A stretch of 64,000 nucleotides of DNA from Escherichia coli 042. GTDB taxonomy: Bacteria > Pseudomonadota > Gammaproteobacteria > Enterobacterales > Enterobacteriaceae. The translations under genes were made by a program, and so were the position numbers. The notes beneath the pieces were generated by a model. The model ran no database searches, was not told where the DNA came from, and was given only the letters and a program-made list of their open reading frames with translations. Numbering within the stretch: the stretch's first letter is position 1; every line of letters starts with the position of its first letter. Positions 1 to 45,853 of the stretch are shown here, one piece after another. The stretch is from assembly GCF_000027125.1 (NCBI RefSeq), contig NC_017626.1. The stretch is one strand, 5' to 3'.

Positions 1-435
1 CGCCAGACCCGTCGCCGGGCGGGGCCGCTACAAGCCGTCACACAAATCGTCGCTGTCGTGGGCATCGCATTGTGTGTCGCCAGCTTTCTGTTGAAAACGC
101 ACCAGCTACTGCTGTTTTACCCGGTAGTGGTTAACGCGATCATGCTGGCGGTTTTTGGCGGTTCGCTGTGGTCGACAATGCCGATAGTTGAGCGGCTGGC
201 ACGTTTGCAGGAGCCAGACCTCCCGGAAAAGGGCGTGCGCTATACCCGCCGTGTCACGCAAATCTGGTGCGGCTTTTTCATCATTAACGGCGGAATTGCC
301 CTCTTTACCGCGCTTTATGGCGATATGTCGTTATGGACCGCCTGGAACGGCATGATTGCTTATTTTTTGATGGGAACGTTAATGGCAGGTGAATGGCTGG
401 TGCGCCGTCAGGTGATAAAAAGAGATCGCTCATGA
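1..435 (+). CDS. Small integral membrane protein of the APE cluster, probably 5'-truncated by the window edge (first in-window ATG at 58)
   Basis: Frame 1 is open from base 1 with no stop; the translation shows an arginine-rich stretch followed by hydrophobic helices; stop overlaps the next gene start (ATGA at 432-435). Position corresponds to apeG in the described ape gene order. Confidence 0.5.
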   Translation, partial: RQTRRRAGPLQAVTQIVAVVGIALCVASFLLKTHQLLLFYPVVVNAIMLAVFGGSLWSTMPIVERLARLQEPDLPEKGVRYTRRVTQIWCGFFIINGGIALFTALYGDMSLWTAWNGMIAYFLMGTLMAGEWLVRRQVIKRDRS

Positions 436-1793
436 AGCAGACCTTACCGCTTGCACGCTGGCTGACTGCGCCACGCCCTGATGACACGCCCATTGCGTGG
501 CTGGACGAAAGCTCGTGGACACTGGGCGATTTGCGTCACGATGTCGCGCAACTTATCTGCCGCTTGCAGCAACAGCCGGGTGAACGCTGGGCGCTGTGCT
601 TTGAGAACAGTTATTTGTTTATCGTTGCCCTGCTTGCCACGCTACACGCCGGAAAAACGCCGGTGCTTCCGGGGCATAACCGTGTCATCCAGCTTAATGA
701 ACAACGTGAACTGTTCGATGGTGTACTTAGCGACAGCGATCTTAACTGGCAAGGTTCATTGCTGTTGGTAGCAAGTTCCCCACAAGTCGCGACACAATCA
801 TTCACCTTTGCCGCTATAGCGCCAGACGCTTATATCGAGCTATTTACCTCCGGTTCTACGGGGCAGCCAAAGCGGGTAATTAAACCTGTTCATTTGCTGG
901 ACCGTGAAGCAGAACTGCTGGCTGAACGATTAGGCGCACGTCTTGCCGGATGTCGTGTCGTCGGTTCCGTATTGCCGCAGCATCTGTACGGCCTGACTTT
1001 TCGCGTTTTCCTGCCAATGGCGCTGGGATTACCGCTGCACGCCGCCATGCTCTGGTATGTCGAACAGTTTGCCGCATTGAGTCACCAGCATCGCTATATC
1101 TTCATCAGCAGCCCGGCATTTTTGAAACGGCTGGATACCCAGCTTTCTCCGCCGCCCGTTCAGGTGCTTCTCTCTGCTGGCGGTGAGCTGCCGTGGCAGG
1201 ACGTAAAACACACCGCGAGCTGGCTGCGCGTCTGGCCTGATGAAATCTACGGCAGCACGGAAACCGGCGTCATTGCCTGGCGTTACCGCGAACAAGAGCA
1301 ACGCCGCTGGCTGCCCTTTCCAGGTATGCACTTCCAGGCCGAAGGTGAAGCATTTCGTCTCTTTTCACCGCTGATAGCGGAAGATAACGGCCTGTTACTC
1401 GATGATCTCTTGCAGTTTAGCCAGGACGGTCAGTTCCATCTGATGGGGCGTCGTGGGCGCATCGTTAAGATTGAAGAAAAACGTATGTCTCTGCAGGAAG
1501 TAGAACAACGTCTGCTGGCGCTGGACGGCATTCGCGAGGCGGCGGCAGTTCCCGTTACGCGCGGCGGGCGTCAGAGCATCGGCGTTTTGCTGGTGCTGGA
1601 TGACGAAGCTCGCCTGCAATGGCAGAACGGCGGCGGGCATAGCCAGGAAATGACCTGGCGGCGATTACTGCGCCCGACGCTGGAGCCAGTTGCTATTCCG
1701 CGTTACTGGCGCGTTATTGATGAAATGCCAGTAAACAGTATGAACAAGCGTGTCTATGCGCAATTACAGGAGTTATTTCATGAAGCCCCATGA
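432..1793 (+). CDS. apeH: AMP-dependent synthetase/ligase (acyl-ACP synthetase-like starter activating enzyme) of the APE cluster
   Basis: ORF 393-1793; likely start ATG 432 (MKQTLPL). Contains the adenylate-forming motif FTSGSTGQPKRV. Gene order matches the described ape cluster. Confidence 0.75.
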   Translation: MKQTLPLARWLTAPRPDDTPIAWLDESSWTLGDLRHDVAQLICRLQQQPGERWALCFENSYLFIVALLATLHAGKTPVLPGHNRVIQLNEQRELFDGVLSDSDLNWQGSLLLVASSPQVATQSFTFAAIAPDAYIELFTSGSTGQPKRVIKPVHLLDREAELLAERLGARLAGCRVVGSVLPQHLYGLTFRVFLPMALGLPLHAAMLWYVEQFAALSHQHRYIFISSPAFLKRLDTQLSPPPVQVLLSAGGELPWQDVKHTASWLRVWPDEIYGSTETGVIAWRYREQEQRRWLPFPGMHFQAEGEAFRLFSPLIAEDNGLLLDDLLQFSQDGQFHLMGRRGRIVKIEEKRMSLQEVEQRLLALDGIREAAAVPVTRGGRQSIGVLLVLDDEARLQWQNGGGHSQEMTWRRLLRPTLEPVAIPRYWRVIDEMPVNSMNKRVYAQLQELFHEAP

Positions 1794-2133
1794 AATCGAG
1801 CGCCATCAGGCACAAGCGAATCACCTTGAGATTGTTTTGCATCTCAGGGCAGATCTGTTCTGGTTTCGCGGCCATTTTGCCGTGCAGCCGTTACTCCCAG
1901 GAGTTGCACAAATCGACTGGGCGATGAGCTACGCGCTCACTCTGCTCGCGCCTGGCTGGCGTTTTCACTCTATTCAGAACATCAAATTCCAGTCCCCGTT
2001 GCTGCCGGACAACCGCGTCACGCTCACGCTTAACTGGCAGGAAGAACGCCAGATTCTGAGCTTTAGCTATCAGCGTCACGACGGTGACGCCCGCCACACC
2101 GCCAGTAGCGGGAAGATCCGCCTATGTCGGTAA
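1780..2133 (+). CDS. apeI: Hotdog-fold 3-hydroxyacyl-ACP dehydratase-like protein (FabZ/FabA-like)
   Basis: ORF 1750-2133; probable start ATG 1780 (MKPHEIERH) overlapping upstream stop. FabZ-like motif FRGHFAVQPLLPGVAQIDW. Confidence 0.65.
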   Translation: MKPHEIERHQAQANHLEIVLHLRADLFWFRGHFAVQPLLPGVAQIDWAMSYALTLLAPGWRFHSIQNIKFQSPLLPDNRVTLTLNWQEERQILSFSYQRHDGDARHTASSGKIRLCR

Positions 2134-3800
2134 ACTTTTCTCCCTGCGTGTTGATCCCCTGCTACAACCACGGCGCGATGATGCCGGGCGTGCTGGCGCG
2201 TCTTAAGCCATTTAATCTGCCCTGTATTGTAGTGGATGACGGCAGCGATGCCGCCACGCAACAGCAACTGGATAATCTGGTTGCCGAACAGCCTGGCGTG
2301 ACCTTAATTCGCCTGGCAGAAAACGCAGGCAAAGGCGCGGCAGTGATGCGTGGCTTACAGGCAGCGGCAGACGCGGGCTTCAGCCATGCGGTGCAGGTGG
2401 ATGCTGACGGTCAGCACGCGATTGAAGACATCCCTAAACTGCTGGCACTCGCTGAACAGCAGCCTGCGGCGCTGATCTCCGGCCAGCCGATTTACGATGA
2501 CTCCATCCCCCGCTCACGGCTGTACGGGCGCTGGGTCACCCACGTGTGGGTATGGATCGAAACGCTCTCCCTGCAACTGAAAGACAGTATGTGCGGCTTT
2601 CGCGTTTATCCGGTTGCGCCAACGCTGCAACTGGCAAAATACGCTACCATCGGCAAGCGGATGGATTTTGACACCGAAGTGATGGTGCGCCTCTACTGGC
2701 AGGGAAATACCAGTTATTTCGTGCCGACCCGCGTCACCTATCCGCTGGACGGGCTTTCGCATTTTGATGCCCTGAAAGATAACGTCCGCATCTCGCTGAT
2801 GCACACACGTCTGTTTTTCGGCATGTTGCCGCGTATTCCTTCACTGCTGATGCGCCACTCTTCCAGCCACTGGGCGCGGCAGAGCGAAGTGAAAGGGTTA
2901 TGGGGAATGCGCCTGATGCTGCTGGTCTGGCGTCTGCTGGGAAGAACTGCGTTTACCGCGCTGCTTTACCCGGTGGTGGGCGTCTACTGGCTCACCGCTG
3001 CTCGTGCACGTAAAGCGTCGCAAGACTGGCTCGCCCGTGTGCGCCAACAACAACCACAGGCAGCAAAACTCAACAGCTATCAGCATTTTCTACGTTTCGG
3101 CAACGCCATGCTCGACAAAATCGCCAGCTGGCGCGGCGAGCTGCAACTCGGGCGTGATGTGCTGTTTGCACCAGGCGCAGAAGCGGCACTTAACGTCAGC
3201 GATCCGCGCGGCAAATTGCTGCTGGCCTCGCATCTTGGCGATGTGGAAGTGTGCCGGGCGCTGGCAAAAATTCAGGGCTACAAAACCATTAACGCGCTGG
3301 TGTTTAGCGAAAACGCCCAACGCTTTAAACAGATAATGCAGGAGATGGCCCCGCAGGCAGGCATCAACCTGCTCCCGGTAACAGATATCGGCCCGGAAAC
3401 CGCCATCCTGCTGAAAGAGAAGCTGGATAACGGCGAATGGGTGGCGATTGTCGGTGACCGCATCGCCGTCAACCCGCAACGCGGCGGCGACTGGCGCGTC
3501 TGCTGGAGTCCGTTTATGGGCCAGCCTGCGCCTTTCCCACAGGGGCCGTTTATTCTTGCGTCTATTTTGCGCTGCCCGGTGAATCTGATTTTCGCCCTGC
3601 GCCAGCACGGCAAGCTGCATATTCACTGCGAAACCTTTGCCGACCCGCTGCTGTTGCCGCGTGGCGAACGCCAGCAGGCGCTGCAAAACGCTATCGATCA
3701 TTACGCCGCGCGTCTGGAACATTACGCGCTCCAGTCGCCCCTCGACTGGTTTAATTTTTTCGATTTCTGGCAACTGCCGGAAGTCCAGGACAAGGAGTAA
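2124..3800 (+). CDS. apeJ: Fused family-2 glycosyltransferase / lysophospholipid-type acyltransferase
   Basis: 558 aa ORF; N-terminal GT2-like region (CVLIPCYNHG ... IVVDDGSDA), long C-terminal acyltransferase-like domain. Confidence 0.75.
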   Translation: MSVNFSPCVLIPCYNHGAMMPGVLARLKPFNLPCIVVDDGSDAATQQQLDNLVAEQPGVTLIRLAENAGKGAAVMRGLQAAADAGFSHAVQVDADGQHAIEDIPKLLALAEQQPAALISGQPIYDDSIPRSRLYGRWVTHVWVWIETLSLQLKDSMCGFRVYPVAPTLQLAKYATIGKRMDFDTEVMVRLYWQGNTSYFVPTRVTYPLDGLSHFDALKDNVRISLMHTRLFFGMLPRIPSLLMRHSSSHWARQSEVKGLWGMRLMLLVWRLLGRTAFTALLYPVVGVYWLTAARARKASQDWLARVRQQQPQAAKLNSYQHFLRFGNAMLDKIASWRGELQLGRDVLFAPGAEAALNVSDPRGKLLLASHLGDVEVCRALAKIQGYKTINALVFSENAQRFKQIMQEMAPQAGINLLPVTDIGPETAILLKEKLDNGEWVAIVGDRIAVNPQRGGDWRVCWSPFMGQPAPFPQGPFILASILRCPVNLIFALRQHGKLHIHCETFADPLLLPRGERQQALQNAIDHYAARLEHYALQSPLDWFNFFDFWQLPEVQDKE

Positions 3801-3803
3801 AGG

Positions 3804-4226
3804 GTGCTTAACGATCCCCGATTTACCGCTGAAGTCGAGCTGACCATTCCCTTTCACGACGTCGATATGATGGGCGTGGCCTGGCACGGTAACTATTTTC
3901 GCTACTTTGAAGTGGCCCGCGAGGCGCTGCTCAACCAGTTCAATTACGGCTATCGGCAGATGAAAGAGTCCGGTTATTTGTGGCCAGTGGTCGATGCGCG
4001 GGTGAAATATCGCCACGCCCTCACCTTTGAGCAACGCATCCGCGTGCGTGCACATATCGAAGAGTTCGAAAACCGTCTGCGGATTGGCTATCAGATTTTC
4101 GATGCCGAAACGGGCAAACGCGCCACCACCGGATACACCATTCAGGTCGCGGTCGACGAGCAAAGCCGCGAACTGTGCTTTGTCAGCCCCGATATTTTGT
4201 TTGAACGCATGGGAGTCAAACCATGA
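3804..4226 (+). CDS. apeK: Hotdog-fold acyl-CoA/ACP thioesterase (4-hydroxybenzoyl-CoA thioesterase / YbgC-like)
   Basis: 140 aa ORF with GTG start; FHDVDMMGVAWHGNYFRYFEVAREALL resembles the YbgC/4HBT thioesterase core. Confidence 0.7.
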   Translation: MLNDPRFTAEVELTIPFHDVDMMGVAWHGNYFRYFEVAREALLNQFNYGYRQMKESGYLWPVVDARVKYRHALTFEQRIRVRAHIEEFENRLRIGYQIFDAETGKRATTGYTIQVAVDEQSRELCFVSPDILFERMGVKP

Positions 4227-4828
4227 AATTTTTACCACTGCTGGCGCTGCTGATTAGCCCGTTTGTGAGCGCCCTGAACCTGGACGATCTTCAGCAACGC
4301 TTTACCGAACAGCCGGTGATCCGCGCTCATTTCGATCAAACCCGGACGATTAAAGATCTGCCGCAGCCGCTACGATCTCAGGGCCAGATGTTGATCGCCC
4401 GCGACCAGGGGCTGTTGTGGGATCAAACCTCACCATTTCCCATGCAACTATTGCTGGACGATAAACGCATGGTGCAGGTGATCAACGGTCAGCCGCCGCA
4501 AATCATCACGGCAGAAAATAACCCGCAGATGTTCCAGTTTAACCACCTGCTGCGCGCGCTGTTCCAGGCCGATCGCAAAGTGCTGGAACAAAATTTCCGC
4601 GTCGAATTTGCTGACAAAGGCGAAGGCCGCTGGACACTGCGCCTGACGCCGACCACCACGCCGCTGGATAAAATTTTCAACACCATCGATCTCGCCGGGC
4701 AAACCTATCTGGAGAGCATTCAGCTTAATGATAAACAGGGCGATCGCACCGATATCGCTCTTACCCAACATCAACTGACGCCAGCGCAACTGACCGATGA
4801 CGAACGCCAACGTTTTGCCGCCCAGTAA
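4223..4828 (+). CDS. apeL: LolA-like periplasmic lipoprotein-carrier family protein
   Basis: 201 aa ORF with N-terminal signal peptide (MKFLPLLALLISPFVSALN); start overlaps apeK stop. Confidence 0.7.
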   Translation: MKFLPLLALLISPFVSALNLDDLQQRFTEQPVIRAHFDQTRTIKDLPQPLRSQGQMLIARDQGLLWDQTSPFPMQLLLDDKRMVQVINGQPPQIITAENNPQMFQFNHLLRALFQADRKVLEQNFRVEFADKGEGRWTLRLTPTTTPLDKIFNTIDLAGQTYLESIQLNDKQGDRTDIALTQHQLTPAQLTDDERQRFAAQ

Positions 4829-7115
4829 ACGCCCGGCGCTGTTATGGGGGATCGTCTGCCTGGTCATGGCGGCGGCGTTGCTGATCCTGTTGCCGCAATC
4901 ACGACTGAACAGTAGCGTGCTGGCTATGTTACCCAAACAGGCGATGGGCGATATTCCTCCAGCGCTGAATGACGGCTTTATGCAGCGTCTGGACCGCCAA
5001 CTGGTGTGGCTGGTCAGCCCCGGTAAAGAGGCTAATCCCAGGGTGGCTCAGGAGTGGCTGACGCTGCTGCAAAAATCCGCTGCGCTCGGCGACGTTAAAG
5101 GGCCAATGGATGCCGCCAGCCAGCAGGCGTGGGGAGCGTTTTTCTGGCAGCACCGCAACGGCCTGGTTGACCCCGACACCCGCGCGCGCCTGCAAAACGG
5201 CGGCGAAGCGCAGGCGCAGTGGATCCTCTCCCAGCTTTATTCTGCGTTCTCCGGGGTAAGCGGTAAGGAGCTGCAAAACGATCCGCTGATGTTAATGCGT
5301 GGCTCGCAGCTGGCGATGGCGAAAAACGGCCAGCGTTTGCGGCTGATGGACGGCTGGCTGGTGACGCAGGATCCCCAGGGCAACTACTGGTATCTGCTGC
5401 ACGGCGAACTGGCGGGATCGTCGTTTGATATGCAGCAAACCCACCAGCTCATCACGACCCTGAATACGCTGGAAAAGGATCTGAAAACGCGTTACCCGCA
5501 GGCGCAGTTGCTCTCGCGCGGCACGGTGTTTTACAGCGATTACGCCAGCCAACAGGCGAAGCAGGATATCTCCAACCTGGGCGTGGCAACGCTGCTGGGG
5601 GTGATATTACTGATTGTGGCGGTGTTCCGCTCTTTACGCCCATTGCTGCTTTGCGTGATTTCCATCGGCATCGGCGCGCTGGCGGGAACGGTCGCCACCT
5701 TGTTGATTTTCGGCGAATTACACCTGATGACGCTGGTGATGAGCATGAGCGTTATCGGCATTTCCGCTGACTACACGCTCTATTACCTCACCGAGCGGAT
5801 GGTGCACGGCAATGACGTTTCGCCGTGGCAAAGCCTGGCGAAAGTGCGCAATGCCCTGCTGCTGGCGCTGCTCACCACCGTGGCGGCGTATCTGATTATG
5901 ATGCTCGCCCCCTTCCCCGGCATTCGCCAGATGGCGATTTTTGCCGCCGTCGGGTTGAGCGCCTCCTGTCTGACCGTCCTGTTCTGGCATCCGTGGCTGT
6001 GCCGTGGCCTGCCGGTGCGTCCGGTTCCGGCGATGGCGCTGATGCTGCGCTGGCTGGCTGCGTGGCGGCGTAATAAAAAACTGTCGCTGGGTCTGCCCGT
6101 CGCGCTGGCGCTGTTTTCGCTGGCGGGGATGTCAATGCTGCGCGTCGACGACGATATCTCGCAGTTACAGGCGCTACCGCAGCATATTCTGGCCCAGGAG
6201 AAAGCCATTACCGCCCTGACCGGACAAAGCGTCGATCAAAAATGGTTTGTAGTTTACGGCGACTCTCCACAGCAAACATTGCGGCGGCTGGAGAAATTTA
6301 CCGCCTCGCTGGAGAATGCGAAAAAAGAGGGGCTTATCAGCAACTACCGCACCATTCCGCTGAACTCCCTGGCGCGGCAGGAGGAAGATTTACATCTGCT
6401 GAAAACGGCTGCCCCGACAGTAACAAAAGCACTGCAAAATGCCGGGCTGGCGGCAGTGAATCCGGATCTCAACGCCATGCCAGTGAAGGTCGATGAATGG
6501 CTGGCAAGCCCCGCCAGTGAAGGCTGGCGTCTGCTGTGGCTGACGCTGAAAAACGGCGAAAGCGGCGTACTGGTGCCGGTTGAAGGGGTTAAAAGTAGCG
6601 CGTTGTTGCAGGAAATCGCCAGCGATTACCCTGGCGGCATTGCCTGGGTTGATCGCAAAAGCACCTTTGATGAGTTGTTCGCACTTTACCGCTACGTCTT
6701 AACCGGTTTGTTGCTGGTGGCGCTGGCGGTGATTGCCTGCGGCGCAGTGGCCCGCCTCGGCTGGCGCAAAGGGCTTATCAGCCTGGTGCCTTCGGTACTT
6801 TCGCTGGGCTGCGGTCTGGCAGTGCTGGCGATGAGCGGGCAGGCGGTGAATCTCTTTTCGCTACTGGCGCTGGTGCTGGTGCTTGGCATCGGCATCAATT
6901 ACACGCTGTTTTTCAGTAATCCGCGCGGTACACCGTTAACTTCCCTACTGGCGATCACGCTGGCAATGCTCACCACCTTGCTGGCGCTGGGAATGCTGGT
7001 ATTCAGCGCCACCCAGGCCATCAGCAGTTTTGGCATTGTGCTGGTGAGCGGTATTTTCACCGCCTTCCTGCTTTCGCCGCTGGCTATGCCCGATAAAAAG
7101 AGAACAAAAAAATGA
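4797..7115 (+). CDS. apeM: MMPL/RND-superfamily membrane exporter
   Basis: 772 aa ORF with two blocks of multiple hydrophobic helices separated by large soluble domains (RND/MMPL topology). Confidence 0.75.
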   Translation: MTNANVLPPSKRPALLWGIVCLVMAAALLILLPQSRLNSSVLAMLPKQAMGDIPPALNDGFMQRLDRQLVWLVSPGKEANPRVAQEWLTLLQKSAALGDVKGPMDAASQQAWGAFFWQHRNGLVDPDTRARLQNGGEAQAQWILSQLYSAFSGVSGKELQNDPLMLMRGSQLAMAKNGQRLRLMDGWLVTQDPQGNYWYLLHGELAGSSFDMQQTHQLITTLNTLEKDLKTRYPQAQLLSRGTVFYSDYASQQAKQDISNLGVATLLGVILLIVAVFRSLRPLLLCVISIGIGALAGTVATLLIFGELHLMTLVMSMSVIGISADYTLYYLTERMVHGNDVSPWQSLAKVRNALLLALLTTVAAYLIMMLAPFPGIRQMAIFAAVGLSASCLTVLFWHPWLCRGLPVRPVPAMALMLRWLAAWRRNKKLSLGLPVALALFSLAGMSMLRVDDDISQLQALPQHILAQEKAITALTGQSVDQKWFVVYGDSPQQTLRRLEKFTASLENAKKEGLISNYRTIPLNSLARQEEDLHLLKTAAPTVTKALQNAGLAAVNPDLNAMPVKVDEWLASPASEGWRLLWLTLKNGESGVLVPVEGVKSSALLQEIASDYPGGIAWVDRKSTFDELFALYRYVLTGLLLVALAVIACGAVARLGWRKGLISLVPSVLSLGCGLAVLAMSGQAVNLFSLLALVLVLGIGINYTLFFSNPRGTPLTSLLAITLAMLTTLLALGMLVFSATQAISSFGIVLVSGIFTAFLLSPLAMPDKKRTKK

Positions 7116-7696
7116 TCAAACCCACATTCTGGCGAGCGTTCGCCCTGACCGCTACGCTTATCCTCACCGGCTGTAGCCACTCGCAACCGGAACAGGAAGG
7201 TCGCCCACAGGCGTGGCTGCAACCTGGCACGCGCATCACGCTGCCGGCACCAGGGATTTCGCCCGCCGTTAATTCCCAGCAACTATTGAGCGGCAGCTTC
7301 AACGGCAAAACCCAGTCTCTGCTAGTGATGCTTAACGCCGACGACCAGAAAATCACCCTTGCCGGGCTGTCGTCGGTCGGCATTCGTCTGTTTCTGGTGA
7401 CCTACGATGCGCAAGGGCTACGCGCCGAGCAATCCATCGTCGTCCCACAGTTGCCGCCCGCAAGTCAGGTGCTGGCTGACGTGATGCTTAGCCACTGGCC
7501 GATTAGCGCCTGGCAACCGCAACTCCCCGCTGGATGGACGCTTCGCGACAACGGTGACAAACGCGAACTGCGTAACGCCAGCGGCAAACTGGTCACGGAA
7601 ATCACCTATCTGAATCGCCAGGGAAAACGCGTGCCAATCAGCATTGAACAGCATGTCTTTAAATACCACATCACCATTCAATATTTAGGTGACTGA
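7112..7696 (+). CDS. apeN: Lipoprotein of unknown function (APE-cluster)
   Basis: 194 aa ORF; signal peptide with lipobox LILTGC; start overlaps apeM stop. Confidence 0.65.
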   Translation: MIKPTFWRAFALTATLILTGCSHSQPEQEGRPQAWLQPGTRITLPAPGISPAVNSQQLLSGSFNGKTQSLLVMLNADDQKITLAGLSSVGIRLFLVTYDAQGLRAEQSIVVPQLPPASQVLADVMLSHWPISAWQPQLPAGWTLRDNGDKRELRNASGKLVTEITYLNRQGKRVPISIEQHVFKYHITIQYLGD

Positions 7697-7697
7697 T

Positions 7698-8867
7698 ATG
7701 ATTTACATTTCCGCCGTCGGCATGATCAACGCCCTGGGAAATAACCTTGACGATATCGCAGCCAACCTGACTCGCGGTGTCGCTCCCGGCATGCGCCCGC
7801 GCGCAGGCTGGTTGCAGGGGCATCCGCAGGCGGTCCTGGCTGGCGTGGATGGCGAGCTTCCGGTTATCCCGGAAAAATTCGCTGCGCACCGCTCGCGCAA
7901 CAATCAGATCCTGCTGGCGGCGCTGGCGCAGATCCAGCCGCAGGTTGATGACGCTATTGCGAAATATGGCCGCGAGCGCATCGCGATTGTGCTTGGCACC
8001 AGCACCTCCGGCCTGCATGAAGGCGACACGCACGTTAACCTGCGCACCCACGGGCAGCCGAGCACCACGTGGCACTATGCACAACAAGAGCTCGGCGATC
8101 CGTCGCGTTTTCTCAGCCACTGGCTGGCGCTCGACGGCCCAGCTTATACCCTTTCAACCGCCTGCTCCTCCAGTGCCAGAGCGATGATCAGCGGGCGCAG
8201 GCTTATCGAGGCGGGGCTGGTCGATGCCGCCATTGTGGGTGGTGCAGACACCCTGAGCCGAATGCCGATTAACGGTTTTCACAGCCTCGAATCGCTCTCG
8301 CCAACCTTATGTCAGCCGTTTGGTCGTGACCGCGCGGGCATCACCATTGGCGAAGGTGCGGGGCTGATGCTGTTGACCCGCGAACCGCAGCCCATCGCCT
8401 TGCTGGGCGTCGGTGAATCGAGCGACGCTTATCATATTTCGGCCCCGCATCCACAGGGCGAAGGCGCAATTCGCGCCATTAACCAGGCGCTGGCTGATGC
8501 GCAGCTTACGCCGGATGAGGTGGGCTATATCAACCTGCACGGCACCGCCACACAACTCAACGACCAGATTGAATCGATGGTGGTAAACGCCCTGTTTGGC
8601 GAACGCGTACCGTGCAGCTCCACCAAACATTTGACCGGACACACGCTGGGCGCAGCGGGCATTACCGAAGCGGCAATCAGTATGTTGATCTTAGAGCGTG
8701 ATTTACCGCTGCCCGCTCAGGACTTCAGCCTGTCGCCGCGCGATCCCACGCTGCCACCGTGCGGCATTATCGAACAACCACAGCCGCTGGCACGTCCGGT
8801 GATCCTGTCCAATTCCTTCGCCTTTGGCGGCAATAACGCCAGCATTCTGCTCGGGAGGGTTTCGTGA
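7698..8867 (+). CDS. apeO: Beta-ketoacyl-ACP synthase (KS) of APE cluster
   Basis: ORF 7689-8867; ATG at 7698 follows upstream stop (7694-7696). Active-site-Cys context TLSTACSSS and HGTAT motif, thiolase fold. Confidence 0.8.
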   Translation: MIYISAVGMINALGNNLDDIAANLTRGVAPGMRPRAGWLQGHPQAVLAGVDGELPVIPEKFAAHRSRNNQILLAALAQIQPQVDDAIAKYGRERIAIVLGTSTSGLHEGDTHVNLRTHGQPSTTWHYAQQELGDPSRFLSHWLALDGPAYTLSTACSSSARAMISGRRLIEAGLVDAAIVGGADTLSRMPINGFHSLESLSPTLCQPFGRDRAGITIGEGAGLMLLTREPQPIALLGVGESSDAYHISAPHPQGEGAIRAINQALADAQLTPDEVGYINLHGTATQLNDQIESMVVNALFGERVPCSSTKHLTGHTLGAAGITEAAISMLILERDLPLPAQDFSLSPRDPTLPPCGIIEQPQPLARPVILSNSFAFGGNNASILLGRVS

Positions 8868-9328
8868 GCCACTATTTATCCCCCGGCGCTTATCTGCCCC
8901 ACGACGCGCCCATGTTACTGCTGGAAGAAGTGGTGAGCGTCAGCGATGACAGCGCGGTGTGCCGTGTAACGGTCTCGCCCAGTGGCGTACTGGCACCGTT
9001 TCTCGACCCGGACGGCAATCTCCCTGGCTGGTTTGCCCTTGAATTGATGGCGCAAACCGTCGGCGTCTGGTCTGGCTGGCATCGCCACCAGCAGGGCAAA
9101 AACAGTATTGAGTTAGGGATGGTACTGGGCGCACGTGAATTGCTTTGCGCCGCTGGCATTCTGCCCGCAGGCCAGACGCTGACCATTACCGTCAAACTCC
9201 TGATGCAAGACGATCGCTTCGGCAGTTTTGAGTGCAGCATCAACAACGGCACGGCAACGGGCCGCATTAACACCTTCCAGCCGACCGCGGAAGAACTTAC
9301 CACCCTGTTTCAACAAGGAGCGTCCTGA
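8864..9328 (+). CDS. apeP: Hotdog-fold dehydratase (FabA/FabZ-like)
   Basis: 154 aa ORF, GTG start overlapping apeO stop; LPHDAPMLLLEEV N-terminus typical of hotdog dehydratases. Confidence 0.65.
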   Translation: MSHYLSPGAYLPHDAPMLLLEEVVSVSDDSAVCRVTVSPSGVLAPFLDPDGNLPGWFALELMAQTVGVWSGWHRHQQGKNSIELGMVLGARELLCAAGILPAGQTLTITVKLLMQDDRFGSFECSINNGTATGRINTFQPTAEELTTLFQQGAS

Positions 9329-10059
9329 TGAGTCGTTCAGTTCTGGTTACTGGTGCCAGCAAAGGCATTGGTCGCGCCATCGCCTGCCAACTGGCGGCAG
9401 ACGGCTTTAATATTGGCGTTCACTATCACCGTGACGCCACAGGCGCTCAGGAAACGCTAAATGCCATTGTCGCCAACGGGGGTAACGGGCGTTTGCTCAG
9501 TTTCGACGTCGCAAACCGCGAACAGTGTCGGGAAGTGCTGGAGCACGAAATCGCGCAAAACGGTGCCTGGTACGGCGTGGTTAGTAACGCCGGGATCGCC
9601 CGCGATGCCGCTTTTCCGGCTTTAAGCGATGACGACTGGGATGCGGTGATCCACACCAATCTCGACAGTTTCTACAACGTTATTCAGCCGTGCATTATGC
9701 CGATGATCGGCACACGCCAGGGTGGACGCATCATCACGCTGTCCTCGGTTTCCGGCGTGATGGGCAATCGCGGACAGGTGAACTACAGCGCTGCCAAAGC
9801 CGGAATTATCGGCGCAACAAAAGCACTGGCTATCGAACTCGCGAAGCGCAAAATCACCGTCAACTGCATCGCGCCGGGGCTTATTGATACCGGGATGATC
9901 GAAATGGAAGAGAGCGCCCTGAAAGAGGCAATGTCGATGATCCCCATGAAACGCATGGGCCAGGCGGAAGAAGTTGCCGGGCTTGCCAGCTATTTAATGT
10001 CTGATATTGCGGGTTACGTCACCCGCCAGGTTATTTCCATCAACGGAGGGATGTTATGA
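9328..10059 (+). CDS. apeQ: 3-oxoacyl-ACP reductase (FabG-like SDR)
   Basis: 243 aa; Rossmann motif VLVTGASKGIGRAIA, catalytic YSAAK, NAG motif. Confidence 0.85.
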   Translation: MSRSVLVTGASKGIGRAIACQLAADGFNIGVHYHRDATGAQETLNAIVANGGNGRLLSFDVANREQCREVLEHEIAQNGAWYGVVSNAGIARDAAFPALSDDDWDAVIHTNLDSFYNVIQPCIMPMIGTRQGGRIITLSSVSGVMGNRGQVNYSAAKAGIIGATKALAIELAKRKITVNCIAPGLIDTGMIEMEESALKEAMSMIPMKRMGQAEEVAGLASYLMSDIAGYVTRQVISINGGML

Positions 10060-11285
10060 CACGTCGCGTAGTGATTACAGGAATGGGCGGCGTGACTGCC
10101 TTTGGTGAAAACTGGCAGGACGTTTCCGCGCGTCTGCTGGCGTATGAGAATGCAGTGCGCAAAATGCCGGAGTGGCAGGTCTACGATGGTCTGCACACCC
10201 TGCTTGGCGCGCCTGTTGATGATTTCACGCTACCGGAGCACTACACCCGCAAGCGTATCCGTGCGATGGGCCGCGTGTCGCAAATGTCGACCCGTGCCAG
10301 CGAGCTGGCGTTAGAGCAGGCAGGATTGATTGGCGATCCGATATTAACCAGCGGCGAAACGGGCATTGCGTACGGTTCATCGACCGGCAGTACCGGTCCG
10401 GTGAGCGAATTTGCCACCATGCTGACGGAAAAGCACACCAATAACATCACCGGCACCACCTATGTACAGATGATGCCGCACACCACCGCCGTTAATACCG
10501 GTCTGTTTTTCGGCCTGCGCGGGCGGGTGATCCCGACCTCCAGCGCCTGTACCTCCGGCAGCCAGGCGATCGGTTATGCGTGGGAAGCCATTCGCCACGG
10601 TTATCAAACGGTGATGGTTGCTGGTGGTGCCGAAGAGTTATGCCCTTCAGAAGCAGCGGTATTTGATACACTTTTCGCCACCAGCCAGCACAATGATGCG
10701 CCGAAAACCACACCTTCACCGTTCGATGAAAACCGCGACGGGCTGGTGATTGGTGAAGGCGCAGGTACGCTGATTCTTGAAGAACTGGAGCACGCCAAAG
10801 CGCGCGGCGCGACCATTTACGGTGAAATCGTCGGCTTTGCGACTAACTGCGACGCGGCACATATTACCCAGCCTCAGCGTGAGACCATGCAATATTGTAT
10901 GGAAAAATCGTTAAAAATCGCCGGGTTAAGTGCAAGTGATATCGGCTATATTTCGGCGCATGGTACGGCGACCGATCGTGGTGATATGGCAGAAAGTCTG
11001 GCGACAGCAACCATTTACGGTGATAATGTGCCGCTCTCCTCGCTGAAAAGTTATTTTGGTCATACGCTTGGTGCCTGTGGCGCGCTCGAAGCCTGGATGA
11101 GTCTGCAAATGATGCGCGAAGGTTGGTTTGCGCCTACGCTAAACCTGAATAAACCAGACCCGAACTGTGGCGCGCTGGATTACATCATGCATGAAGCCCG
11201 CAAGGTTGATTGTGAGTTTTTGCAGAGTAACAACTTTGCCTTTGGCGGCATTAATACATCCATCATCATTAAACGTTGGCCCTGA
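10056..11285 (+). CDS. apeR: Beta-ketoacyl-ACP synthase I/II-like (FabB/FabF family)
   Basis: 409 aa; active-site Cys context SSACTSGSQAIG, HGTAT and GHTLGACGA motifs. Confidence 0.85.
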   Translation: MTRRVVITGMGGVTAFGENWQDVSARLLAYENAVRKMPEWQVYDGLHTLLGAPVDDFTLPEHYTRKRIRAMGRVSQMSTRASELALEQAGLIGDPILTSGETGIAYGSSTGSTGPVSEFATMLTEKHTNNITGTTYVQMMPHTTAVNTGLFFGLRGRVIPTSSACTSGSQAIGYAWEAIRHGYQTVMVAGGAEELCPSEAAVFDTLFATSQHNDAPKTTPSPFDENRDGLVIGEGAGTLILEELEHAKARGATIYGEIVGFATNCDAAHITQPQRETMQYCMEKSLKIAGLSASDIGYISAHGTATDRGDMAESLATATIYGDNVPLSSLKSYFGHTLGACGALEAWMSLQMMREGWFAPTLNLNKPDPNCGALDYIMHEARKVDCEFLQSNNFAFGGINTSIIIKRWP

Positions 11286-11286
11286 T

Positions 11287-11874
11287 ATGTATCGGATAGT
11301 TCTGGGGAAAGTTTCGACCTTAAGCGCAGCTCCACTGCCACCGGCTTTACGCGATCAAGCACCGCAAGGTCCACGACGCGAACGCTGGCTGGCGGGGCGT
11401 GCATTACTTTCGCACACGCTTTCCCCGCTACCGGAGATCATCTATGGCGAACAAGGCAAACCGGCATTCGCGCCGGAAACGCCGCTATGGTTCAACTTAA
11501 GCCATAGCGGTGACGATATCGCCCTGCTGTTGAGCGATGAAGGCGAAGTCGGCTGCGATATCGAAGTGATTCGCCCGCGCGCCAACTGGCGCTGGCTGGC
11601 GAACGCCGTGTTCAGCCTCGGGGAACACGCTGAGATGGACGCCGTGCATCCCGATCAGCAACTGGAAATGTTCTGGCGCATCTGGACGCGCAAAGAAGCC
11701 ATCGTTAAACAGCGTGGCGGCAGCGCCTGGCAAATCGTCAGCGTAGACAGCACCTATCACTCATCACTGTCAGTCAGCCATTGTCAGCTAGAAAATTTAA
11801 GCCTGGCGATCTGCACCCCTACCCCCTTTACGCTCTCCGCCGACAGTGTGCAATGGATCGATTCAGTTAACTGA
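11287..11874 (+). CDS. acpT: 4'-phosphopantetheinyl transferase AcpT
   Basis: ORF 11167-11874; ATG 11287 gives a 195 aa product (MYRIVLGKVSTLSAAPLP...) matching E. coli AcpT as recalled; immediately downstream of the ape genes. Confidence 0.85.
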   Translation: MYRIVLGKVSTLSAAPLPPALRDQAPQGPRRERWLAGRALLSHTLSPLPEIIYGEQGKPAFAPETPLWFNLSHSGDDIALLLSDEGEVGCDIEVIRPRANWRWLANAVFSLGEHAEMDAVHPDQQLEMFWRIWTRKEAIVKQRGGSAWQIVSVDSTYHSSLSVSHCQLENLSLAICTPTPFTLSADSVQWIDSVN

Positions 11875-45703: not shown

Positions 45704-45853
45704 GTCCTGATTCAGACCTCCTTTCAAATGAATACCCAACGCTTAATTCACACCTATTACCTTCCTCTGCACATACACATTCGTTAAACCATATATGTTT
45801 TTGACTTATCCGCTTCGAAGAGAGACACTACCTGCAACAATCAGGAGCGCAAT

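Follow-up and report, generated by a model that had tools for sequence, protein, structure and literature searches.

In E. coli 042 the three adjacent genes apeL, apeM and apeN are, as judged from protein identity and gene order, the known transport genes that the aryl-polyene (APE) cluster of E. coli carries. We analyzed them within a window of 64,000 nucleotides of the chromosome (contig NC_017626.1), to which all positions below refer. With moderate confidence, we favor as the likeliest mechanism a relay of three steps, in which the finished APE-lipid would pass from ApeM to ApeL and from ApeL to ApeN. This hypothesis is already in print (Johnston et al. 2021; Grammbitter et al. 2020), and our results add nothing to the question.

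Identity, setting and spread of the genes

A sequence-only reading of this DNA had described three consecutive genes at positions 4223 to 7696, coding for a LolA-like protein, an MMPL transporter of 772 aa and a lipobox lipoprotein. Its coordinates were exact, all three genes are on the plus strand, and the Pfam scores exceed the cut-offs. In identical DNA of E. coli 118UI, RefSeq names the products “LolA family protein,” “MMPL family transporter” and “DUF3261 domain-containing protein.” The same reading had the genes embedded in a biosynthetic cluster, which the annotation bore out, with GT2, thioesterase, ketosynthase, dehydratase, ketoreductase and ACP genes flanking apeLMN. The whole APE gene set, read from the RefSeq annotation of identical DNA and compared with Table 1 of PMC8253772, was present in the published order (KS, CLF, two ACPs, two DH, KR, aryl-ACP synthetase, acyltransferases and ApeL/M/N).

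The APE_Ec cluster of strain CFT073 has been described by Johnston et al. 2021 (PMC8253772; Cimermancic et al. 2014 is cited therein), and the gene order and neighbors of apeLMN are identical in the two strains (Table 1 of PMC8253772). Protein identities to CFT073 were 98.5% for ApeL (c1192), 96.5% for ApeM (c1191) and 96.4% for ApeN (c1190), while the DNA was 95% identical across apeI-apeR and much less so in apeG and apeH. They are the same genes, and the transport hypothesis published for them (PMC8253772, Table 1 and Fig. 8) applies here too. The chromosomal site is different: in strain 042 the cluster is flanked by yhhT and acpT/nikA on the E. coli chromosome, unlike APE_Ec of CFT073, which is found in an integrase-flanked island adjoining pgaA/dgcT. 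The window begins inside apeG, leaving its 3' part (positions 1 to 435, plus strand, from the annotation of the identical record); the product, a COG4648 membrane protein, is a fourth transport component in the literature (PMC8253772).

The stop of the thioesterase gene apeK (positions 3804 to 4226, plus strand, from ORF and annotation) overlaps the start of apeL in an ATGA, as is also the case at apeM/apeN. The overlap between apeL and apeM is 32 nt, and the ATG of the ketosynthase gene apeO (positions 7698 to 8867, plus strand, from annotation) is one base past the stop of apeN, where the biosynthetic genes continue directly. Together, these ATGA and 32-nt overlaps and the one-base gap indicate that the genes form one operon.

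The order apeJ-K-L-M-N-O-P was colinear in 78 of 81 loci, and the remaining three were cut by contig ends. It was also kept in loci where ApeN was just 34 to 40% identical and in a metagenomic locus (L090, see below). In a distant locus on a 5.8-kb contig (L084), the DUF3261 gene heads the KS/DH genes and has neither an RND nor a LolA gene immediately before it. A search with one genome per species gave 219 stretches encoding a relative, the best 80 of which came from Citrobacter, Klebsiella, Enterobacter, Kluyvera, Raoultella, Serratia, Pectobacterium, Brenneria, Pantoea, Edwardsiella, Hafnia and others. The module was present in 825 of 5426 complete E. coli genomes and was found in dozens of Enterobacterales genera. 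It is thus common, and the earlier statement that it is one of the few Lol paralog systems in Enterobacteria does not hold as regards its rarity.

Predicted properties of the three proteins

ApeL (positions 4223 to 4828, plus strand, 201 aa) was assigned as a predicted periplasmic protein of the LolA family from its ORF, Pfam, a PDB match, the RefSeq name and the identity to CFT073. It scored 44.9 bits against the LolA family PF03548 (gathering threshold, 23.6) and 43.7 against LolA_3 PF19574 (threshold, 23), and in the PDB it matched a solved “LolA family protein” (8t5j; E, 1e-22). Narrower assignments were ruled out, both to the housekeeping LolA (60.4 bits versus an equivalog cut-off of 112, NCBIfam TIGR00547) and to the flexirubin LolA2 equivalog (55 bits versus 125, NCBIfam NF053544), and phmmer against the PDB did not reach E. 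coli LolA from ApeL at an E value of ≤1. Residues 1 to 17, MKFLPLLALLISPFVSA (positions 4223 to 4273, plus strand), read as a predicted Sec signal peptide, in which cleavage would follow A17, the next residues being LN, with V-S-A at −3 to −1 and no lipobox in the sequence. A17 and L20 were invariant among 17 ApeL homologues. Given that the N-terminal signal sequence is found in the E. coli protein as well as in homologues, a periplasmic ApeL is more likely than the “cytoplasmic” one of the Grammbitter et al. 2020 preprint (bioRxiv 10.1101/2020.12.19.423268), which speaks of an “APPE” RND transporter family.

ApeM (positions 4797 to 7115, plus strand, 772 aa) is a predicted inner-membrane transporter of the RND/MMPL type, according to Pfam, hydropathy, an AF2 model, Foldseek and a family profile. 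The Pfam MMPL family PF03176 matched with 32.4 bits (gathering threshold, 20.5), and hydropathy and the helix pattern of the AF2 model (pLDDT, 88.3) agreed on 12 TM helices with large periplasmic loops or domains between TM1 and TM2 and between TM7 and TM8. The best Foldseek match of the model was HpnN (E, 1.4e-19; TM, 0.63), followed by MmpL4/5, with AcrB also matched, and the family profile found HpnN with an E value of 1.3e-34. Membership in the HpnN or HAE3 families was ruled out, the scores against TIGR03480, NF052374 and TIGR00921 being far below the curated cut-offs (48.6 versus 751.85, 19.5 versus 1100 and 49.6 versus 351.9 bits, respectively), so that ApeM is a relative only. Xanthomonas MMPL transporters fall within the ApeM family. 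Conservation and the alignment with HpnN point to D325 and Y326 in TM4 (codons at positions 5769 to 5774, plus strand) as candidate proton-relay residues. Among homologues including those of Xanthomonas, D325 was conserved in 51 of 51 and Y326 in 50 of 51, H309 and G321 were also invariant, and the D325-Y326 motif aligned with the “GVDF” segment of HpnN. The helix-4 Asp of HpnN was reportedly identified by Kumar et al. in 2017 as a functional proton-relay residue. At the equivalent position of TM10, E. coli ApeM has Asn, and the family is divided between Asn (29 sequences) and Asp (22 sequences).

ApeN (positions 7112 to 7696, plus strand, 194 aa) is a DUF3261 lipoprotein (PF11659, 133.5 bits versus 22.3) with a predicted LolB-like fold. 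Its lipobox, L18-T-G-C21 (positions 7163 to 7174, plus strand), was read from the sequence and from conservation, the Cys being kept in 96 of 97 diverse homologues. The residue at +2, here Ser, was never Asp in the 81 homologues with a recognizable lipobox pattern. Under the Lol sorting rule, a +2 residue other than Asp targets lipoproteins of Enterobacteria to the outer membrane, and the Ser predicts this destination for ApeN. The model of ApeN (pLDDT, 93) gave as top matches, with two independent programs, the LolB proteins of V. cholerae, E. coli and Xanthomonas, at Foldseek TM-scores of just 0.41 to 0.47. The predicted structure is an unclosed beta-barrel with internal helices, that is, a LolA/LolB fold. 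At the sequence level, Pfam at an E value of ≤1 yielded DUF3261 and a subthreshold lipoprotein-site match and no LolB, neither the single sequence nor a 97-sequence profile found LolB in the PDB, and hhalign of the ApeN and ApeL families (probability, 0.6%) detected no homology. In E. coli LolB, a protruding loop with the exposed hydrophobic Leu68 is needed for membrane insertion.

The proposed relay and its alternatives

In the relay, ApeM would work as a proton-motive-force-driven transporter of the HpnN/MmpL type that extracts the APE-lipid from the inner membrane and displays it at the periplasmic side, probably after direct handover by the membrane-bound acyltransferase domain of ApeJ. 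ApeL, as a soluble periplasmic protein with the LolA fold, would shield the acyl and polyene chains during the crossing of the periplasm. ApeN, a LolB-fold lipoprotein predicted to be anchored by the housekeeping Lol system in the inner leaflet of the outer membrane, would accept and insert the lipid. The data computed here, namely the families, folds, signal peptide and lipobox, operon coupling, synteny, helix-4 Asp and a gene fusion, are consistent with the relay; we infer what the cargo is, in which direction it is transferred, that ApeM contacts ApeL and ApeL contacts ApeN, and where ApeN is located. The sequence-only reading had also predicted a Lol-like export of the product to the outer membrane, which is the published ApeL/M/N model and agrees with our data, while still being a prediction. 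Along similar lines, xanthomonadin and flexirubin are reported or thought to be outer-membrane pigments, with LolA-like and exporter genes present in the corresponding clusters.

In the papers that we read on ApeL, ApeM and ApeN, we found no report of APE-lipid binding by ApeL or ApeN and none of mislocalization in a mutant. Extracts of an E. coli apeM deletion had no detectable APE metabolites, rather than mislocalized pigment, and the published series did not yield clean deletions of apeL or apeN (PMC8253772). For these reasons, the localization of the product in export-module mutants is a confounded criterion. Counting against the relay, pigment production in Lysobacter persists in a mutant of the LolA-like ORF10 (production, not location, was examined). 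HpnN is not known to need a soluble carrier, which also counts against it, as do the apeM deletion result, the arrangement in L084, the lack of sequence homology between ApeN and LolB or ApeL, and the low TM-scores of ApeN to LolB.

It is unlikely, in our view, that ApeM alone brings the APE-lipid to the outer membrane, as proposed for HpnN and hopanoids, with ApeL and ApeN accessory or otherwise employed, be it in assembly scaffolding or quality control or in an enzymatic or product-holding role like that of the LolA-fold enzyme VioE. Wherever a locus is of sufficient length, the three genes are neighbors in the same order, down to 34 to 40% ApeN identity; the signal peptide and lipobox would put ApeL and ApeN outside the cytoplasm, away from ACP-bound chemistry; and the best fold matches are to carriers and receptors rather than enzymes. 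The constant adjacency of apeM and apeN and their ATGA overlap would also suit an ApeN that serves as a periplasmic adaptor on ApeM (cf. the MmpS and lipoprotein partners of mycobacterial MmpL pumps), while ApeL brings the cargo to a different acceptor or into the membrane directly, and the MmpL4/5 structures matched by ApeM are complexes with small partner proteins. Nevertheless, the lack of Asp at +2 in all 81 homologues, which predicts outer-membrane sorting in Enterobacteria, and the best fold matches, to the outer-membrane receptor LolB, make such an adaptor improbable.

A further proposal, raised in PMC8253772, has ApeL and ApeN trafficking a lipoprotein (ApeA, or a protein anchored by APE) instead of free APE-lipid. 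LolA/LolB folds classically carry lipoprotein acyl chains, and the cluster does encode the lipoprotein ApeA (PMC8253772). However, an apeA deletion retains wild-type pigmentation (PMC8253772), the cluster has no LolCDE-type extractor, and the APE-lipid from Xenorhabdus was isolated as a free molecule of the glycolipid type, which is not a protein anchor (bioRxiv 10.1101/2020.12.19.423268), leaving lipoprotein cargo very improbable.

As to how the relay from ApeM through ApeL to ApeN might be loaded, the C-terminal acyltransferase half of ApeJ (residues 246 to 553; positions 2859 to 3782, plus strand; located by BLASTP) was 37% identical over 312 aa (E, 7e-57) to a metagenomic fusion protein (P0387) that contains Pfam Lip_A_acyltrans. 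In this locus, L090, the ApeJ-type acyltransferase domain is joined to the C-terminus of an ApeM homologue, and the fusion physically links the last step of lipid assembly to the exporter. Since its domain is fused to the exporter in this relative, the ApeJ acyltransferase probably supplies the lipid for export. A tentative extension, possible and on balance doubtful, is that ApeM receives the nascent APE-lipid at the cytoplasmic face by direct transfer from the ApeJ-type acyltransferase and that ApeM-ApeL-ApeN is a hybrid pathway moving a free glycolipid, rather than a lipoprotein, to the E. coli outer membrane. The putative acyltransferase-exporter coupling is the sole new element with respect to the printed relay, its basis being this single metagenomic fusion; if true, it would explain why pigment is lost, rather than trapped, when the exporter is deleted.

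Relation to known systems and significance

In order to put ApeLMN into perspective, we compared it with other systems. The ApeL/M/N proteins of Xenorhabdus doucetiae belong to the same cluster type, with the same proposed roles (ApeM as RND exporter, ApeL as LolA-like and the DUF3261 protein ApeN as LolB-like; Grammbitter et al. 2020). The closest solved structure and sequence relative of ApeM is HpnN of Burkholderia (PDB 5khn, 5khs and 6wu0). Shared features are 12 TM helices, two periplasmic domains and a helix-4 Asp within G-x-x-D-[YF], and both are lipid cargo pumps (in ApeM, by prediction) encoded beside biosynthetic genes, although ApeM is only 17% identical and about 100 residues shorter. 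HpnN is not known to have dedicated LolA/LolB-like partners. RND lipid exporters with periplasmic or outer-membrane lipid-binding partners are also found in the BstA/BstB/BstC sterol and mycobacterial MmpL systems; ApeM matched the BstA and MMPL models weakly, with scores far below the equivalog cut-offs, and resembled MmpL4/5 in structure. The folds of BstB/BstC and of the mycobacterial MmpL partner proteins are unrelated to those of ApeL and ApeN.

With the Lol pathway (LolCDE, LolA and LolB), the Ape system shares a soluble LolA-fold carrier and a LolB-fold lipoprotein in a two-step periplasmic relay, as predicted here. Unlike in Lol, the inner-membrane engine is an RND pump and the presumed cargo a free lipid; no ABC transporter is annotated in the cluster, where the RND protein is the sole transporter. 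Given this pump in place of LolCDE, ApeLMN is not a full Lol paralogue, as the earlier label of Lol paralog system would have it, and ApeL falls below the LolA cut-off and ApeN lacks sequence similarity to LolB. A LolA-like/LolB-like pair inside an aryl-polyene-type (flexirubin) pigment locus is likewise found in Flavobacterium johnsoniae, where LolA2/LolB2 are dispensable for general lipoprotein functions and proposed to move pigment (De Smet et al. 2025, PMC11885536).

[quoted passage not shown] The crossing of the periplasm by a very hydrophobic lipid is a general problem. The LolB-like fold of DUF3261, the likeness to HpnN, the invariant D325/H309 and near-invariant Y326, and the exporter-acyltransferase fusion give modest support for the design of experiments. 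If the published model is true, ApeLMN would be a clean case of LolA/LolB folds reused for nonprotein cargo and driven by an RND pump. If the hybrid pathway is also true, this RND engine with its LolA/LolB-fold carriers would constitute a way of moving lipid between membranes that is separate from Lol, Lpt and Mla.

Gene content, distribution and chromosomal site of the export genes

The three genes at 4223 to 7696 of the window, all on the plus strand, encode ApeL (4223 to 4828, 201 aa), ApeM (4797 to 7115, 772 aa) and ApeN (7112 to 7696, 194 aa), the putative export proteins for aryl-polyene (APE) lipid. All three had Pfam matches above the curated cut-offs, namely, LolA/LolA_3 for ApeL, MMPL for ApeM and DUF3261 for ApeN. 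Together with the open reading frames, signal sequence, lipobox and topology, these domains fully bear out the sequence-only reading of a secreted LolA-like protein, a 772-aa MMPL/RND-type transporter and a lipobox lipoprotein. The ATGA overlaps at both the apeK/apeL and apeM/apeN junctions, the 32-nt overlap between apeL and apeM, and the downstream ketosynthase gene starting one base after the apeN stop indicate translational coupling.

The annotated gene order was methyltransferase, CLF, LPLAT, two ACPs, AMP-binding enzyme, FabZ-like dehydratase, GT2 and thioesterase, then LolA, MMPL and DUF3261, followed by KS, ApeP dehydratase, FabG2 and KS. Around the module, this is the order that Johnston et al. 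2021 (PMC8253772) tabulated for the APE cluster (their Table 1). Identities to the E. coli CFT073 proteins were 98.5% (ApeL/c1192), 96.5% (ApeM/c1191) and 96.4% (ApeN/c1190). When window positions 1 to 11285 were compared at the DNA level with the CFT073 cluster (NC_004431.1, 1143727 to 1158748), identity was 95.1% over apeI-apeR and 78.8% for apeG, and blastn found no match over most of apeH (683 to 1678), a pattern that makes the 5' part of the cluster look mosaic.

In CFT073, the APE cluster lies on an integrase-flanked island beside pgaA/dgcT, whereas that of the window lies between yhhT and acpT/nikA; within E. coli, the same cluster is therefore found at two separate places on the chromosome. 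Immediately after the last APE gene comes acpT (4'-phosphopantetheinyl transferase, 11287 to 11874), whose product, as PMC8253772 cites from De Lay and Cronan 2006, activates the O157:H7 counterparts of ApeE/ApeF. Given this position and this activity, the locus looks like an arrangement in which the PPTase adjoins its substrates.

Elsewhere in the window, there are two low-GC patches (0.34 to 0.40, against a background of 0.50 to 0.58), one at ca. 28000 to 32000 with yhiJ and a second DUF4049 gene and the other at ca. 52000 to 54000 with a gene for a hypothetical protein of 407 aa, upstream of slp. Horizontal acquisition is probable for the two patches. The ars operon (ca. 45850 to 50160) has the order regulator-arsD-arsA-arsB-arsC; that of K-12 is the shorter arsRBC, without arsD and arsA. 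The window closes with the chu/shu heme-uptake locus (ca. 55050 to 64000).

The 3.5-kb module segment was 100% identical in E. coli chromosomes such as that of strain 118UI. Its abundance did not agree with the earlier description of the module as one of the few such systems in Enterobacteria: 825 of the 5426 complete E. coli genomes (15%) carried it, on the chromosome every time and, in at least one genome, with two matching places, and a locus search with one genome per species, using a 15-sequence ApeN alignment as the query, gave 219 stretches encoding a relative, the best 80 of which cover several dozen Enterobacterales genera. All of these best 80 were titled Enterobacterales except for one Tolumonas and one Chryseobacterium record, and a protein search with the ApeN profile gave Enterobacterales throughout among the matches listed. 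In the record titled Chryseobacterium sp. 18061, the apeJ-apeP block is of the Enterobacterales type, with an ApeN of 80% identity, and hardly differs from that in a record titled Citrobacter sp. 18056; mislabelling or contamination of the assembly is the probable explanation.

Folds and targeting signals of the three proteins

ApeM has RND topology, with 12 TM helices and two periplasmic domains. The best match of its AlphaFold model (pLDDT 88.3) was the hopanoid transporter HpnN (E 1.4e-19, TM 0.63), followed by MmpL4/5 and then AcrB-type pumps, and a profile of the ApeM family (51 sequences) matched HpnN with an E value of 1.3e-34. Within these 51 sequences, D325 (TM4), H309 and G321 were invariant, and Y326 was kept in 50. 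The counterpart of this TM4 Asp-Tyr pair in the second half is N701-Y702 in TM10 (6897 to 6902); the family is split at the position matching D325 (N in 29 sequences, as in E. coli, versus D in 22), while HpnN has Ala-Phe in place of N701-Y702. The proton relay of ApeM may be asymmetric, as in HpnN. Given that D325 is invariant and its TM10 counterpart is either N or D, the conservation pattern fits a proton-driven RND mechanism with a single essential Asp, and the ATP- or pyrophosphate-driven step via ApeG suggested in the literature is not required to explain the ApeM evidence.

The N-terminus of ApeL, MKFLPLLALLISPFVSA followed by LN, reads as a typical Sec signal (4223 to 4273) with predicted cleavage before LN, in which A17 was invariant among the homologues compared. 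Although ApeL was termed "cytoplasmic" in the preprint by Grammbitter et al. 2020, a periplasmic location is more plausible, since 16 homologues share the N-terminal signal sequence of the E. coli protein. The solved LolA-family relative is PDB 8t5j (E 1e-22), for which a literature search found no relevant paper.

ApeN has the lipobox LTGC with Ser at +2. The lipobox Cys was kept in 96 of 97 diverse homologues, and none of the 81 with a recognisable lipobox had Asp at +2; by the Lol sorting rule, ApeN is thus predicted to be sorted to the outer membrane. No sequence similarity to LolB, LolA or ApeL was detected in PDB, Pfam and hhalign comparisons, and searches of the PDB by phmmer and with the 97-sequence profile gave chance matches only. 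ApeN and ApeL as detectable paralogues were rejected at the sequence level (hhalign probability of 0.6%). The putative link between ApeN and LolB comes via fold comparison only: Foldseek, run with an AlphaFold model built from the 97 homologues (pLDDT 93), independently ranked LolB first (E 1.5e-5, TM 0.41 to 0.47).

The module had also been read as a paralogous Lol system, which did not stand. The cluster has no LolCDE equivalent, ApeL is not a LolA orthologue, scoring well under the equivalog cut-offs of both housekeeping LolA and flexirubin LolA2, and ApeN falls outside the LolB family by sequence.

Synteny and an exporter-acyltransferase fusion

The order apeJ-K-L-M-N-O-P was colinear in 78 of 81 loci, the remaining three ending at contig edges, and was the same at ApeN identities of only 34 to 40% (L085 and L087). 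In distant phyla, synteny was sampled through only a few metagenomic contigs, of which L085, L087 and L090 were informative, whereas several others, of 1 to 2 kb, were not. L090, a JGI metagenome contig, encodes a 1115-aa protein (P0387, 2369 to 5716) combining a full-length ApeM homologue (31% identity to ApeM, window 4797 to 7115; E 5e-77) with a C-terminal acyltransferase domain of the ApeJ type (37% over 312 aa to the C-terminal half of ApeJ, window 2859 to 3782; E 7e-57). The GT2 gene of the L090 cluster is short, and a stand-alone acyltransferase gene is absent; in E. coli, the acyltransferase domain is fused to GT2. Between the GT2 and thioesterase genes, L085 and L087 each have a gene of 342 or 316 aa without a Pfam match, which we take by its position to be a putative stand-alone acyltransferase domain. 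The P0387 fusion would tie the exporter to the final acylation, with the limited weight of a single contig.

A proposed relay to the outer membrane and its alternatives

Johnston et al. 2021 (PMC8253772) gave the three proteins as "LolA-like molecular chaperone" (ApeL), "RND family transporter" (ApeM) and "DUF3261 - LolB-like membrane protein" (ApeN), drew them in their Fig. 8 as a dedicated pathway for export to the outer membrane, and reported ApeGLMN to be conserved across APE clusters. Grammbitter et al. 2020 (10.1101/2020.12.19.423268) made the same proposal for Xenorhabdus, placing ApeM in the "APPE" family of RND transporters. Along similar lines, the Flavobacterium LolA2/LolB2 pair (PMC11885536), located inside the flexirubin locus and dispensable for general lipoprotein functions, has been proposed to move pigment. 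Our initial interpretation, Lol-like shuttling of the pigment to the outer membrane, is thus the rediscovery of a standing hypothesis. LolA-like and exporter genes had been seen in xanthomonadin-type and flexirubin clusters in the earlier literature. The outer-membrane localisation of xanthomonadin was reportedly treated by Goel et al. in 2002.

We regard as reasonably probable a relay in which ApeM, powered by the proton gradient, would pull the finished APE-lipid out of the inner membrane, ApeL would cover it during the periplasmic crossing, and ApeN, anchored in the outer membrane, would take it and insert it. The families, folds, targeting signals, operon coupling and synteny found here support this relay; its cargo, its protein-protein contacts and the location of ApeN are what we infer. 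Against it stand the apeM deletion, which lost APE metabolites and showed no mislocalisation (PMC8253772), a Lysobacter LolA-like mutant that was still pigmented, and one distant contig with DUF3261 and no adjoining RND gene, as well as the fact that no localisation experiments bearing on the relay were found in the papers covered. Since clean deletions of apeL and apeN were not obtained (PMC8253772) and loss of apeM removes the metabolites themselves, pigment localisation in export mutants is a confounded test.

That ApeM might act alone, in the manner of HpnN, with ApeL and ApeN as accessories, seems unlikely but is the strongest of the alternatives. An adaptor role for ApeN, bound to the pump, is improbable, and it is more doubtful still that ApeL and ApeN move a lipoprotein such as ApeA, an explanation weakened by the fact that deleting apeA leaves pigmentation at the wild-type level (PMC8253772). 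With the relay as the preferred reading, the module is real, was described correctly and was already known at the level claimed, and its mechanism stands as a proposal; rather than a new finding, this analysis adds supporting details to a known system.
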